Notes under the pieces: model-generated
Seen by the model: only the letters and a program-made list of their open reading frames with translations
Database searches by the model: none
Told to the model about the DNA's origin: nothing
Position numbers and translations under genes: made by a program
In this document: positions 6,896-10,663 of the stretch, piece by piece
Layout of the letters: each line of letters opens with the position of its first letter
Position numbering within the stretch: position 1 is the stretch's first letter
NCBI RefSeq assembly: GCF_003334815.1
Contig: NZ_QOWO01000014.1
Length of the DNA stretch: 64,000 nucleotides
DNA from: Escherichia coli
GTDB taxonomy: Bacteria > Pseudomonadota > Gammaproteobacteria > Enterobacterales > Enterobacteriaceae
Reading direction: 5' to 3' (one strand)

Positions 6896-7471
6896 ATGCC
6901 CCTCTTACACCTGCTCCGCCAGAATCCGGTGATTGCTGCCGTTAAAGATAATGCCAGCCTGCAACTGGCAATCGATTCTGAATGCCAATTTATTTCCGTG
7001 TTGTACGGCAATATCTGCACCATCAGTAATATCGTTAAAAAGATTAAGAACGCCGGGAAATATGCTTTTATTCATGTTGATTTGCTGGAAGGCGCGTCAA
7101 ATAAAGAAGTCGTTATTCAGTTTTTGAAACTGGTGACCGAGGCGGACGGCATTATCAGTACCAAAGCCTCAATGTTGAAAGCGGCAAGAGCGGAAGGTTT
7201 TTTCTGTATTCATCGCCTGTTTATTGTTGATTCAATTTCGTTTCACAACATTGATAAGCAAGTTGCGCAATCGAATCCGGATTGTATTGAGATCCTGCCA
7301 GGCTGTATGCCCAAAGTGCTGGGCTGGGTGACAGAGAAAATCCGCCAACCGCTGATTGCCGGTGGGCTGGTGTGCGATGAAGAAGATGCGCGTAATGCGA
7401 TTAACGCGGGTGTCGTGGCGCTTTCCACCACGAATACCGGGGTCTGGACGTTAGCGAAAAAATTACTTTGA
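6896..7471 (+). CDS. ygcP: GlpP-like (glycerol-3-phosphate responsive antiterminator family) putative regulator, 191 aa
   Basis: Full-length ORF of the size and sequence recalled for K-12 YgcP. Confidence 0.85.
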   Translation: MPLLHLLRQNPVIAAVKDNASLQLAIDSECQFISVLYGNICTISNIVKKIKNAGKYAFIHVDLLEGASNKEVVIQFLKLVTEADGIISTKASMLKAARAEGFFCIHRLFIVDSISFHNIDKQVAQSNPDCIEILPGCMPKVLGWVTEKIRQPLIAGGLVCDEEDARNAINAGVVALSTTNTGVWTLAKKLL

Positions 7472-7505
7472 CGGGATAATCGTAACCAATTGAATTTGGT
7501 TTGAT

Positions 7506-7577
7506 TTGTAGGCCGCACGCCACATCCGACATTCAGCGCCTGATGCGACGCTTGACGCGTCTTATCAGGCCTACAAG
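7506..7577. repeat. REP/BIME repeat pair between convergent ygcP and ygcQ
   Basis: TGTAGGCCG...GCCTGATGCGACGCTTGACGCGTCTTATCAGGCCTACA palindromic units. Confidence 0.55.
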
Positions 7578-7618
7578 TCCCCAGGCCAGAACCGTAGGCA
7601 GGATCATCCGGCAACACG

Positions 7619-8479
7619 TTATTGGCAATCTGCGTGAATGTTTGTCACCAGTGCCTCCAGCACCACTTTCCAGTCATCAACCACGCCAACATCTGCCTGT
7701 GAAAATACCGCAGCGCTGGCGTCATGATTAATCGCCACCACAAACTTGCTATTGCGTACGCCCGCCATTAACGCTGCTGCGCCAGAAGCGCCAACAACAA
7801 TACACACCTCAGGTGCCAGCAGATGTCCGGAAATACCAATCACTTTTTCAGCATCAACGCCACCGTTCATCACTCGCGCCCGACTGTAGCCCACTTCGGC
7901 TCCCAGCTTTTCTGCCAGCATAGCGATTTCCTGGTTATCTGCCTCTCCGCCCTGCCCCACCACCAGCACCCGTCTGGCCTCAGCTAATGGGTCGCGGGTA
8001 ACATTTTTCAGATCCTCTGTGCTAACCAGCCAGTCCGGAAGCGCACCCGGGACAATGTTCAGTTGTTGCATTCCAGAGGGCAACGTGGCGTTTTTCGCTG
8101 CTCCCGCCTGACGCGCCAGGGAAAGGCATAGCGGGCGTTTTTCTGTTTGCAGCGTCGCCGTTAGCGCATTTCCCCAGTGGGATTTGCGCACGCTTACGGT
8201 TGGAATATCTAACGAAGTCACCTGGCAGATGCTTGCACCATGTAAACGCCAGGCCAGCCGGGTCGACAGTTCATCGCCAAACGTTCCCGGCGGAAAGAGA
8301 ACAACGTCCGCAGGCGTTCGCTGCCACTGTTCCACCAACGCATCCAGCACCTGTTCCGCCACTACAGGCTGAGGTTCAATCTGCCAGTGCGCCAGGGTAC
8401 AACCGCTGAAATCCTGCGCCGCCAGCCAGCTTGCTATTGCGGCATTCTCCTGATTTATTGTCACAATTGCGATATTCAT
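7619..8479 (-). CDS. ygcQ: Electron transfer flavoprotein alpha subunit (FixB-like), 286 aa
   Basis: ORF trimmed to ATG 8479 (MNIAIVTINQ...); 4-nt ATGA overlap with ygcR stop. Confidence 0.85.
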   Translation of the reverse strand: MNIAIVTINQENAAIASWLAAQDFSGCTLAHWQIEPQPVVAEQVLDALVEQWQRTPADVVLFPPGTFGDELSTRLAWRLHGASICQVTSLDIPTVSVRKSHWGNALTATLQTEKRPLCLSLARQAGAAKNATLPSGMQQLNIVPGALPDWLVSTEDLKNVTRDPLAEARRVLVVGQGGEADNQEIAMLAEKLGAEVGYSRARVMNGGVDAEKVIGISGHLLAPEVCIVVGASGAAALMAGVRNSKFVVAINHDASAAVFSQADVGVVDDWKVVLEALVTNIHADCQ

Positions 8480-9255
8480 GGCTGCATCCTTTGGCGTAAA
8501 TAGTCCTGCCATAGCTTTTGAGCTTTTTCTGCTACCGTTTGCCCATCAATCAGCGTCGCTCCGCGTCGTTGCTCTGCTCTTGCCAGTTGCAGACACTGCA
8601 TCGCTGGCATTTCGGCAGCAACAGTTTTACGGATAATTTCTGCTTTCCCCGCAGCCATTCGCTGGCGCATTCCCGGTACTGGCAAGGCCACTTCACCGCA
8701 CTGACGCACGGCAATCACCGCAGGCAAGCGAACCCGGCAACAACGCAACCCATGTTCAGTACGCTGTTCGAGGGTGATAAACAGCGCGTCGAGAGTGAAA
8801 CGCTCCACCTGGGTGAAGCAGGGCCAGCCCAGCATTTCCGCCAGCAAAAATGGCGTTTGCCCATTCTGCCCTTCGCTGCTTTGGCAGCCGGTAATTATCA
8901 GATCCAGCGGATTCTGATGCTGCCATTCGGCAATATGGCGAGCGACAAATTCCGGCGCAAAGCGCAGATCTGCCGCCGTCTCCAGCAATACAGCTTCCTC
9001 AAACCCAAGAGCCATGAGATAGCGCAGCCAGTGCAATGCCCGTTCATCCCCCATGCTCAACGCGGTTAAAGACATCGGCGTACCGTTTTTTCTCTGCGCC
9101 AACAGCAGCGCGGCAGCGGCCTGTTCATCAGCACCGAGTAAACTTCGCAGTAGCGAAATATCCGGTCCGCTTTTACCCTGAGCCGCCGCCTGCCACTCTT
9201 TTTCCGCCAGCATTCCGGCATCCGGTTCGGCTTTAAACGCTAACAGAATGTTCAT
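8476..9255 (-). CDS. ygcR: Electron transfer flavoprotein beta subunit (FixA-like), 259 aa
   Basis: ORF trimmed to ATG 9255 (MNILLAFKAEPD...). Confidence 0.85.
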   Translation of the reverse strand: MNILLAFKAEPDAGMLAEKEWQAAAQGKSGPDISLLRSLLGADEQAAAALLLAQRKNGTPMSLTALSMGDERALHWLRYLMALGFEEAVLLETAADLRFAPEFVARHIAEWQHQNPLDLIITGCQSSEGQNGQTPFLLAEMLGWPCFTQVERFTLDALFITLEQRTEHGLRCCRVRLPAVIAVRQCGEVALPVPGMRQRMAAGKAEIIRKTVAAEMPAMQCLQLARAEQRRGATLIDGQTVAEKAQKLWQDYLRQRMQP

Positions 9256-10570
9256 TCGCACCTCCTACATTTCCCGCCGCCACCAGCGGGAGGGCTTTAG
9301 TTTCTGGTGCCCATAGCCAGGTCACAACAAAACCAACCAACAACACTGTCGCCAGGAGCAATAAGGTGACTTGCATTCCCCACTGCGCCAGCACCCACGG
9401 CAGCAGGCCAGTACTTACCGCCGCGCCAAGTCGACTCATGGCAGTGGCAAAACCGACGCCCAGCGAGCGAATGTCAGTAGGAAAACTTTCCGCAGGCAAA
9501 ATGCCCACCAGATTACTGACTGCCGAAATGGTGGTGCTGAAGAGAACAAAAAGCAGCAGCGTTAATGAACTGCCGGAAGGCAAACAGGCCATGACTACCA
9601 GCGTTGCCGCCAGCAGCAAAAAACTTCCCAGCAAAAATTTGCGATGTGCCAGCAGGTGCGTCAGAACTAATCCCAGCAGCGCGCCCACAATTAACAACGC
9701 ATTAAGCATCAGGCTGGCAGTCAGCGCATCTTCCAGACCAATAGTCTGGGCGATAGTTGGCAGCCAGGTATAAATCACAAACCATGGGATTACGAGGCAG
9801 ACAAAGAAGACGCTGTTAAACGCCGTGCGCCGCCAGTAACGCGAAGAGAACAAGGTTTTGATGTGTTTATGGGTCGCCGTTACCACTTCATCGCCCAGTA
9901 AAACATGGGGACCAAAATAGCGATGCACGATAGCGTGAGCTTCTGCAAAACGCCCCTGGCGCAGTAGCCAGCGTGGTGATTCTGGCGTTCCCCAGCGTAA
10001 TAACGTAATCAACAACGCGGGCAGAGCTGCCGATGCCAGTAGCCAGCGCCAGGCCTCCGGGTTTTCGGAAATAAAGTGATGTCCGGCAATACTTGCCAGC
10101 ACATAGCCTACGGTCCACACCACGCTGAATGCGCCCAGCAAAATACCGCGATGGCGGCGCGGGGAAAATTCAGCCAGCAAGGTGTGACCTACTGAATAAT
10201 CGCCTCCCAGACCAATGCCAATCAAAATGCGCAGTCCAATAAGATGCTCTGGCGTGGTGGCAAAAAATTGTAAAAACGAAGCAAGCGTAATCAGCAAAAA
10301 GCTGAAGGTGAAGATTTTTTGCCGACCAATATGGTCGGAGATCCACCCAAGAACCAGGCTGCCAAGGAACAAACCAAGGAGCGCCGAGCCGCCGATCATT
10401 CCCGCCATAAACGGCGTCAGTTGCATGGCGGGCGTAAGCTGAATAATGGCGTAACCAATGACGCCGAGAACATAACCGTCGGTCAGGTGTGCGCCGAAAG
10501 TGAGCGCAGCAATGCGGCAGTGAAAACGGTTAAGCGGTAAATCATCCATTCGCACCGGTGAAGTGTTCAT
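9233..10570 (-). CDS. ygcS: MFS-family transporter (sugar-porter-like), 445 aa
   Basis: ORF trimmed to ATG 10570 (MNTSPVRMDD...); multiple hydrophobic TM segments. Confidence 0.85.
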   Translation of the reverse strand: MNTSPVRMDDLPLNRFHCRIAALTFGAHLTDGYVLGVIGYAIIQLTPAMQLTPFMAGMIGGSALLGLFLGSLVLGWISDHIGRQKIFTFSFLLITLASFLQFFATTPEHLIGLRILIGIGLGGDYSVGHTLLAEFSPRRHRGILLGAFSVVWTVGYVLASIAGHHFISENPEAWRWLLASAALPALLITLLRWGTPESPRWLLRQGRFAEAHAIVHRYFGPHVLLGDEVVTATHKHIKTLFSSRYWRRTAFNSVFFVCLVIPWFVIYTWLPTIAQTIGLEDALTASLMLNALLIVGALLGLVLTHLLAHRKFLLGSFLLLAATLVVMACLPSGSSLTLLLFVLFSTTISAVSNLVGILPAESFPTDIRSLGVGFATAMSRLGAAVSTGLLPWVLAQWGMQVTLLLLATVLLVGFVVTWLWAPETKALPLVAAGNVGGANEHSVSV

Positions 10571-10663
10571 CTTTACCCCTTTATTGTCCGGTAATAAGAA
10601 CGGCTTCTCGCCTGAGAAGCCGAAAAGGCAACGCCCCGTCATCGCGGAACGCTGCCTGACACA

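Follow-up and report, generated by a model that had tools for sequence, protein, structure and literature searches.

Genes and features of the ygcU-ygcS region

The window (the whole 64,000-nucleotide stretch of Escherichia coli DNA analysed here) contains an uncharacterised gene cluster and its neighbours, arranged as follows:

Plus strand: cysJ, queD and ygcN-ygcO-ygcP (annotation)
Minus strand: ygcQ, ygcR, ygcS, ygcU and ygcW (annotation)
Plus strand: yqcE-ygcE, then a CRISPR (annotation)

Window positions are converted to MG1655 coordinates by adding 2,887,300. Over the 601 nt compared the window matches strain 52F4 with 100% identity, and this region of the E. coli chromosome was found in 5094 of 5426 complete genomes. 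Our comparative scan, which used one genome per species, gave 46 loci, in 44 of which ygcS directly follows ygcU, and the cluster yqcE / ygcW-U-S-R-Q / ygcP-O-N is syntenic across 44 Enterobacterales species. Within the minus-strand operon ygcS/ygcR and ygcR/ygcQ are overlapping genes, and the ygcW-ygcU spacer is A+U-rich and without structure; no hairpin comparable to that between ygcU and ygcS was found at any of these remaining junctions. Full-text literature searches (ygcU/ygcS; ygcP/ygcW/ygcQ) gave nothing on the regulation of the operon. The ygcU-ygcS junction itself has the following features, which are listed in the direction of transcription:

10666..10664, minus strand: TAA stop codon of ygcU
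10657..10626, minus strand: hairpin A, AGGCAGCGUUCCG-CGAUGA-CGGGGCGUUGCCU, 13 bp including G.U, about -22 kcal/mol
10640..10642, minus strand: upstream in-frame ATG, the PGAP start of ygcS (469 aa), in the loop of hairpin A
10626..10623, minus strand: U4 tract directly 3' of hairpin A, whose first U is able to pair with A10657
10622..10601, minus strand: hairpin B, CGGCUUCUC-AGGC-GAGAAGCCG, stem of 9 perfect base pairs, loop of 4 nt, about -15 kcal/mol
10592..10600, minus strand: U-rich tail of hairpin B, UUCUUAUUA, in which a C and an A interrupt the Us (six among the first 8 nt)
10568..10582, minus strand: ygcS translation start, with the Shine-Dalgarno sequence AAAGGGG at 10582..10576 and the ATG at 10570..10568 (K-12, 445 aa)

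Two hairpins in the intergenic spacer

A sequence-only reading of this DNA had placed a hairpin at 10602-10621, 43 nt past the ygcU stop and 32 nt ahead of the K-12 ygcS ATG. Its sequence, location and both distances are correct (GGCTTCTC-GCCT-GAGAAGCC on the plus strand; GGCUUCUC-AGGC-GAGAAGCC, followed by G-UUCUUAUUA, on the minus or coding strand), and the stem is in fact 9 bp, one C-G pair longer than had been claimed (-14.9 kcal/mol by RNAfold). That reading overlooked hairpin A, which lies 3 nt upstream of hairpin B and 6 nt past the ygcU stop, so that the two hairpins together occupy the 93-nt spacer. In the predicted fold the bases that follow the hairpin B stem, UUCUUAUUACC, are unpaired and rich in A+U.

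When the 93-nt spacer was shuffled 20,000 times with its dinucleotides preserved, 0.18% of the products had an unbroken Watson-Crick stem of 9 bp or more with a loop of 3-8 nt, and the spacer as a whole folds with -41.7 kcal/mol (z = -5.1), a stability equalled in none of 200 shuffles. There are 10 such perfect hairpins of at least 9 bp in the 64-kb window, several of the others also being flanked by A- and T-runs in a terminator-like fashion. A terminator-pattern scan reports hairpin B, with 9 pairs (6 of them G-C), a loop of 4 and the tail TTCTTATTAC. Hairpin B has the G+C-rich stem (about 5-14 bp) and short loop of intrinsic terminators, and it is placed as they are, in the sense-strand RNA 3' of a stop codon.

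Hairpin A is confined to Escherichia; E. albertii, E. whittamii and strain AST85 carry substitutions in it that preserve the pairing. Its slot in Citrobacter and other genera is either empty or holds an ERIC-like insert; such inserts fill it in Klebsiella, Raoultella, Enterobacter 10-1 and C. koseri. A 21-nt part of hairpin A aligns with the right end of the Klebsiella ERIC-like insert (p about 0.002, a weak match), which weakly suggests that hairpin A could be the remnant of an ERIC-like insertion. As modelled, hairpin A with its U4 tract is a second, upstream terminator-like unit, and the E. coli junction is a predicted tandem pair of weak units; a d'Aubenton-Carafa-type terminator score, computed with modern energies and uncalibrated, is about +8 for hairpin A and its tail and about +2 for hairpin B.

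The translation start of ygcS

Most RefSeq E. coli records, including that of the 100%-identical strain, have the ygcS start at ATG 10642 (PGAP), so hairpin B is annotated within the coding sequence. If this were right, hairpin B would be part of a 24-residue N-terminal extension of YgcS and the palindrome would be incidental. The reading frame is indeed open from 10642, and the prevalence of this annotation speaks for the idea, but ATG 10642 has no Shine-Dalgarno sequence whereas the strong AAAGGGG stands ahead of ATG 10570, and the curated K-12 ygcS is the short form of 445 aa. Alignments with all 44 orthologues begin at residue 1-6 of the short YgcS, MFS profiles match the long one from residue 32-34 onward, and the supposed extension contains the ygcU stop in Citrobacter and other genera. 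The SNPs in the 72-nt extension are non-synonymous in the YgcS frame in four of four cases, and the base changes keep the RNA pairing rather than the peptide. Neither a conserved start nor a coding type of substitution was found, the orthologues using the short-form ATG, and we consider a coding role for the hairpin very improbable. We judge from these comparisons that ATG 10642 is not the real ygcS start and that the 469-aa PGAP model is over-extended; the ygcS start in most RefSeq E. coli annotations would then be 24 codons too long.

Two other features near the start were considered and set aside. A mini-ORF (AUG-AAG-GGG-stop) over the Shine-Dalgarno sequence is not essential, having been lost here (AUA) and in C. 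amalonaticus. A helix UUACC/GGUAA that would sequester the Shine-Dalgarno sequence was rejected; its pairing is lost in MGH106 and ENT03.

Conservation and covariation of the hairpin

A G+C-rich hairpin is present in all 44 of the ygcU-ygcS spacers, a few nt past the ygcU stop where there is no insert, and in most short spacers the core stem lies 8-10 nt past that stop. Homologues of hairpin B itself were found in 33 of the 44 species, among them members of Escherichia, Citrobacter, Klebsiella, Raoultella, Superficieibacter, Yokenella, Pluralibacter, Mixta, Cedecea and Buttiauxella. Pairs were counted over 32-34 sequences, with MAFFT and covariance-model-anchored alignments in agreement: 90% of the cells in the hairpin B alignment are paired, compared with 49-63% when the 3' partners are slid, and five of the nine pairs show changes on both sides. 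The compensating changes convert GGCUUCUC/GAGAAGCC to GGCUCCUC/GAGGAGCC, UGGCUUCC/GGAAGCCA and GUCGGCUC/GAGCCGAC. The observed paired fraction or covariation score was reached in none of 500 shuffles, a count that overstates significance because the sequences are related; the slid-partner control keeps this relatedness and is more telling. The Cedecea and RIT693 rows are out of register even after covariance-model realignment and were counted against the structure. RNAalifold returned no structure from the MAFFT alignment, and pairs were instead counted for the stated structure.

A covariance model of the hairpin scores 33-77 bits at the ygcU-ygcS junction only; elsewhere in 465 kb it found nothing but the reverse strand of the palindrome and sub-threshold noise. 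A search of window positions 7000-15000 against Rfam 15 (E up to 10) gave no match within 10571-10663. At one position of the hairpin B stem 16 of the 32 sequences have a U.G pair, and the sense-strand folds are more stable than the antisense folds (Wilcoxon p = 3e-6); these two observations indicate that the selected structure is that of the minus-strand RNA, and not a DNA operator or palindrome, nor an antisense transcript.

Of 5093 E. coli genomes, 5006 have the same 45-mer around hairpin B, but diversity in the species is too low for this invariance to count as independent evidence. In the divergent strain AST85 the loop is changed and both stems (A and B) are kept through G.U pairs. Membership of a dispersed repeat family (REP/BIME and the like) was rejected, as the 45-mer occurs at a median of 1 place per genome, and at most 2, in the 5093 genomes.

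The U-rich tail and a probable internal terminator

In 31 distinct homologous sequences the first 8 nt past the stem contain 3-7 T, with a mean of 5.4, compared with 23% T across the spacers (counted from the model-anchored alignment; automatic picking of the lowest-energy hairpin merged upstream A-runs with the U-tract). The tails differ among lineages, as in UUCUUAUU, CUUUUUUU, UGAUUUUA, UCUUUUUU, UUUUUUGC and AUUUUUUG, yet they remain U-rich, which argues that selection acts on composition, that is on a U-tract and not on a sequence motif. Some orthologues are canonical terminators (T7 in C. sedlakii, T6 in Pluralibacter and T5 in Limnobaculum). The E. coli tract UUCUUAUU has U at six of eight positions, with interruptions at positions 3 and 6, and those of its orthologues range from CAAUUUUA to U7; poor tails are found in C. 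amalonaticus (CAAUUUUA), Enterobacter 10-1 (CCUUUACC) and Serratia DD3 (CUCGCGCU). In Limnobaculum, Budvicia and Serratia microhaemolytica the hairpin is beside the ygcU stop and 61-128 nt from the ygcS start, so in these long spacers it belongs to the end of ygcU and not to the ygcS ribosome site.

The ygcU-ygcS spacer is only 52-62 nt in many species and consists of the hairpin, a T-tract and the Shine-Dalgarno sequence, which leaves no space for a ygcS promoter. A promoter of its own for ygcS was also rejected in E. coli, where a promoter-pattern scan of window positions 10540-10800 found no consensus match on the minus strand. The genes ygcS-ygcR-ygcQ must therefore be read through the hairpin, and any terminator there must be leaky.

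On balance we think it probable that hairpin B is a leaky (sub-maximal) intra-operon intrinsic terminator which parts ygcW-ygcU from ygcS-ygcR-ygcQ. The sequence-only reading had suggested a partial internal terminator or attenuator, and this suggestion is favoured by evidence of a comparative kind: the hairpins of 44 species, the covariation in 33 of them, the U-rich tails and the short spacers. Against a terminator stand the interrupted U-tract of E. coli, the score of about +2 (uncalibrated) and the poor tails in some lineages. In addition, the U-rich stretch of the core genera adjoins the upstream side of the Shine-Dalgarno sequence and could serve translation initiation instead. That termination occurs at hairpin B, and with what efficiency, we infer from the features described above.

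As RNA polymerase leaves ygcU, the nascent RNA would fold the hairpin while the weak rU:dA hybrid of UUCUUAUU occupies the active site, and a fraction of the complexes would release a ygcW-ygcU transcript of about 2.4 kb, the proposed release site being the tail at 10592..10600. The remaining complexes would read through and make the sole mRNA for ygcS-ygcR-ygcQ, since the stretch from the hairpin to the ygcS ribosome-binding site is too short for a promoter. The released RNA, ending in a hairpin, should be protected from 3' exonucleases, and the expected outcome is more mRNA for the dehydrogenases (ygcW and ygcU) than for the transporter and flavoproteins (ygcS, ygcR and ygcQ). In Escherichia the insertion of hairpin A and its U4 just upstream would have made this a tandem pair.

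The ygcW and yqcE leaders and published 3' ends

The sequence-only reading had also wondered whether the junction hairpin is related to leader hairpins near ygcW. A ygcW leader element of the form CAGUUACC-AGAGA-N-GAGAAAGGUAAC-top stem-GUUACCUUUCU-U9 is kept in all loci, and an analogous element is present ahead of yqcE on the opposite strand. The ygcW leader terminator occupies window positions 13046..12996. The 42 leader sequences compared show no variation in the AGAG box or in most of the lower stem (GAGAAA/UUUCU); covariation is seen in the middle and upper parts of the 17-bp stem (92.7% paired compared with 52-65% when slid, with six pairs changed on both sides). The UUACY upstream repeats the sequence of the 3' arm of the leader and could act as an antiterminator by pairing with the 5' arm. 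The window has two matches to the leader signature TTACYAGAG-N3-9-GAGAAARGT, and no more:

13038-13060, minus strand: leader signature
13207-13228, plus strand: leader signature

The signature is found once or twice per locus in the 44 loci, always in the yqcE-ygcW divergent region, and near the ygcU/ygcS junction it is absent in all 44. The suggested kinship between hairpin B and the ygcW leader hairpins thus does not hold, and hairpin B as a third copy of the leader element is rejected. In many genera the top of hairpin B (CUUCCC/GGGAAG) resembles the top of the ygcW leader terminator, from which the yqcE leader differs, and we treat this likeness as coincidence.

YgcP is a full-length protein of the glycerol-3-phosphate-antiterminator family PF04309 (E = 1.6e-62), and its gene is syntenic with the cluster in most species, four Serratia loci having no ygcP nearby. 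In B. subtilis the GlpP-regulated promoters have a GlpP binding site and a terminator in the 5' UTR (PMC9604022). By analogy the ygcW and yqcE leaders are likely, as putative targets, to be acted upon by YgcP. The literature that we searched on ygcP gave passing mentions only and no functional study.

Published Term-seq data place a 3' end at MG1655 2900311 (minus strand), 38 nt upstream of ygcW, and another at 2900556 (plus strand), upstream of yqcE (Adams et al. 2021; PMC7815308). The same tables, with their strong ygcW leader end, list no 3' end at MG1655 2897800-2898099 (PMC7815308), and neither ygcU nor ygcS appears in the accessible parts of the SMRT-Cappable-seq and TERMITe tables. The operon is evidently attenuated in the ygcW leader or silent under the published conditions. 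With a strong 3' end in that leader, little transcription reaches the ygcU-ygcS junction, so the missing 3' end there is only weak counter-evidence.

Other possible roles of the hairpin

The main rival to a leaky terminator is an RNA stabiliser or processing boundary that acts without termination, in which RNase E would cut 3' of the hairpin (or hairpins), exonucleases would be blocked, and the ygcW-ygcU part of the message would outlive the ygcS-ygcR-ygcQ part. This arrangement is compatible with termination and would have the same result, with more of the upstream than of the downstream genes expressed. All 44 species have the hairpin as a constant feature, whereas their U-tails differ widely in strength, with poor ones in some lineages, and the predicted single-stranded, A+U-rich segment UUCUUAUUACC lies just 3' of the stem, as such a model would have it; intercistronic REP hairpins in malEFG stabilise upstream mRNA in the same manner. 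On the other hand, the tail keeps its U-richness while its sequence shifts, and reaches T6-T7 runs in orthologues, which an exonuclease block does not need, and the element is single-copy and not REP-like. We regard stabilisation without termination as unlikely, if a serious contender. A chance palindrome, or a protein-binding site at the DNA level with no RNA function, is the hardest of all to credit: the stem is just 9 bp, and its invariance in E. coli is no more than the low diversity of the flanks predicts, but its shuffle probability is about 0.002, it covaries across genera, and the U.G pair is an A.C mismatch on the other strand or in a cruciform, which would break a symmetric operator.

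Termination at the hairpin might also be conditional, with read-through set by YgcP or by the ribosome finishing ygcU, as a second checkpoint after the ygcW leader. The full-length PF04309 protein encoded by a gene syntenic in most species, the conserved ygcW and yqcE leader terminators, for which 3' ends are mapped, the pairing of binding site and 5' UTR terminator in B. subtilis GlpP targets (PMC9604022), and the resemblance of the CUUCCC...GGGAAG top to that of the ygcW leader in many genera all lend this some appeal. So does the position of the stem about 8-10 nt past the ygcU stop in most genera (in Escherichia this is true of hairpin A). The leader signature with its invariant GAGAAA/UUUCU lower stem is, however, missing from the junction in every locus, and the CUUCCC top is absent from the yqcE leader and hence is not a conserved leader part. 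No alternative antiterminator pairing is predicted, the centroid being the same as the minimum-free-energy structure, and the four Serratia loci with no nearby ygcP still carry a hairpin. GlpP-type antitermination is, moreover, local to the binding site and not processive. We find conditional termination improbable, and it seems quite improbable that a two-tier antitermination might switch the transporter and flavoprotein module apart from the dehydrogenase module through YgcP or a trailing ribosome. Equally far from our expectation is a translation insulator, in which the hairpin would free the ygcS Shine-Dalgarno sequence from pairing with ygcU RNA and the U-stretch would be a landing pad for protein S1. 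In the core genera the distance from hairpin to ATG varies rather little (19-32 nt), the insertions (hairpin A and the ERIC-like inserts) are all upstream and never between the hairpin and the Shine-Dalgarno sequence, and the stretch after the tail, UUACCGGACAAUGAAGGGGUAGAA, is well conserved; yet the independent insertion events are few, the 61-128 nt that separate hairpin from ygcS start in Limnobaculum, Budvicia and S. microhaemolytica do not suit such a role, and T6-T7 runs directly at the stem are left unexplained by it.

Comparison with known systems

In kind, hairpin B is most likely an ordinary, unannotated internal terminator. If so, it would establish how the transcripts of an uncharacterised E. 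coli cluster are organised, with ygcW-ygcU in excess over ygcS-ygcR-ygcQ, and a weak internal terminator with phylogenetic support would be usable for calibrating predictors. The stakes of the junction are modest, and the twin leader terminators with mapped 3' ends beside the GlpP-family gene ygcP are of greater interest than the junction hairpin.

The rplL-rpoB attenuator and T1 between rpsU and dnaG are intra-operon intrinsic terminators of E. coli that were proven by transcript mapping and in vitro termination. Hairpin B resembles them as an intercistronic G+C-rich stem-loop with a U-tract ahead of promoterless downstream genes, for which graded expression would be expected; it differs in being known purely from comparison, in its interrupted U-tract and in being doubled in Escherichia. 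With the REP/BIME elements of the malE-malF type it shares a stable intercistronic hairpin that may shield the upstream segment from 3' exonucleases, but it occurs once per genome across 5093 E. coli genomes, lacks the REP consensus and has a conserved U-rich tail. The ERIC/IRU repeats are comparable with hairpin A only, which occupies the same slot and has weak similarity to the right end of ERIC (as represented by the Klebsiella insert); at just 32 nt, however, it is short and has no ERIC core.

The remaining comparison is with the leader terminators of ygcW and yqcE, for which, as putative YgcP targets, the B. subtilis glpD, glpFK and glpTQ leaders serve as the model (PMC9604022). Hairpin B shares with these two leaders a stem-loop with Us behind it and a place on the same transcript, and it has the CUUCCC/GGGAAG top in many genera. 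Unlike them, it is intercistronic and not in a 5' UTR, it is without the TTACYAGAG...GAGAAARGUAA...UUACYUUUCU-U8 arrangement, and it has a stem of 9 bp, compared with 17-19 bp in the leaders, and a weaker U-tract.

Insertions and a deletion between ygcU and ygcS

Several loci carry inserted sequence in the spacer between the ygcU stop codon and hairpin B, the conserved terminator-like stem-loop ahead of ygcS. ERIC/IRU-like elements lie here, about 60–200 nt upstream of the ygcS start, in four loci of the comparative set:

L012, Klebsiella spallanzanii, ERIC/IRU-like insert
L014, Enterobacter sp. 10-1, ERIC/IRU-like insert
L042, Raoultella terrigena, ERIC/IRU-like insert
L052, Citrobacter koseri, ERIC/IRU-like insert

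They occupy the same slot that holds hairpin A, the Escherichia-only hairpin, in Escherichia, and other repeat-rich inserts are present there in Serratia H1w and AKBS12; the slot looks like an insertion hot spot. A deletion is found in E. coli 2015C-4136CT1 (locus L003, NZ_CP027550.1), where the loss of about 175 bp has joined ygcU to ygcS, taking out the last ygcU codons, the entire spacer including hairpins A and B, and some 27 codons from the start of ygcS; ygcU of this strain is annotated as a pseudogene. The comparative set also includes a pair of loci on oddly labelled contigs (L053/L027): a contig labelled as a Planctomycetota MAG has a ygcU-ygcS region with 100% protein identity to that of E. 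coli, and an Enterobacteriaceae-type locus lies on a contig labelled Chryseobacterium sp. 18061. These are likely cases of contamination or mislabelling in public assemblies.

The start of ygcS

Two features lie on the minus strand around the start of ygcS:

10571-10642, minus strand, span that separates the two annotated ygcS starts
10576-10584, minus strand, three-codon mini-ORF (AUG-AAG-GGG-stop) overlapping the ygcS Shine-Dalgarno sequence

In most RefSeq/PGAP records for E. coli, ygcS begins with the ATG at 10642 (469 amino acids), and K-12 and some O157:H7 records start it at the ATG at 10570 (445 amino acids). The evidence favours the short form over the 469-amino acid model, and the long model is therefore an annotation error that has spread through thousands of genomes. 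The mini-ORF, present in K-12 and in most genera, is probably incidental; its AUG is AUA in the window, and C. amalonaticus has lost the AUGA.

YgcP and the twin leaders of ygcW and yqcE

7498-7571, sub-threshold match to Rfam naRNA4
6896-7471, plus strand, ygcP, PF04309 (G3P_antiterm)
13063-12996, minus strand, ygcW leader element
13204-13267, plus strand, yqcE leader element

The naRNA4 match (34 bits, below the gathering score of 59.5; E = 0.0035) sits between the convergent ends of ygcP and ygcQ, where we suspect that the operon has a REP-type repeat at its 3' end. Adams et al. 2021 also report a Term-seq 3' end at MG1655 2892741 (+), or window position ~5441. It falls inside ygcN, which opens the ygcN-ygcO-ygcP unit, at about 85 nt from the start of the gene.

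The ygcW and yqcE leader elements are divergently oriented twins with the layout UUACY-AGAG-N-GAGAAARGUAA-variable top-UUACYUUUCU-U8, kept across some 42 loci of Enterobacterales. Their sequence is invariant in the AGAG box and over most of the lower stem; higher up, in its middle and top, the stem shows covariation, with 92.7% of cells paired versus 52–65% when the partners are shifted. Term-seq 3' ends map to both leaders, at MG1655 2900311 (minus) and 2900556 (plus) (Adams et al. 2021). An Rfam search over the two elements returned no significant match. By pairing with the stem's 5' arm, the upstream UUACY could act as an antiterminator.

Full-text literature searches returned no studies of ygcP function, only passing mentions. 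YgcP is 96–99% identical in amino acid sequence in Citrobacter and Klebsiella, far above YgcQ, YgcR, YgcO and YgcN (56–78%), and YgcW, YgcU and YqcE are similarly highly conserved. The protein matches PF04309 over its full length (E = 1.6e-62), and, by analogy with B. subtilis GlpP, the ygcW and yqcE leaders are likely targets of this adjacent GlpP-family antiterminator.
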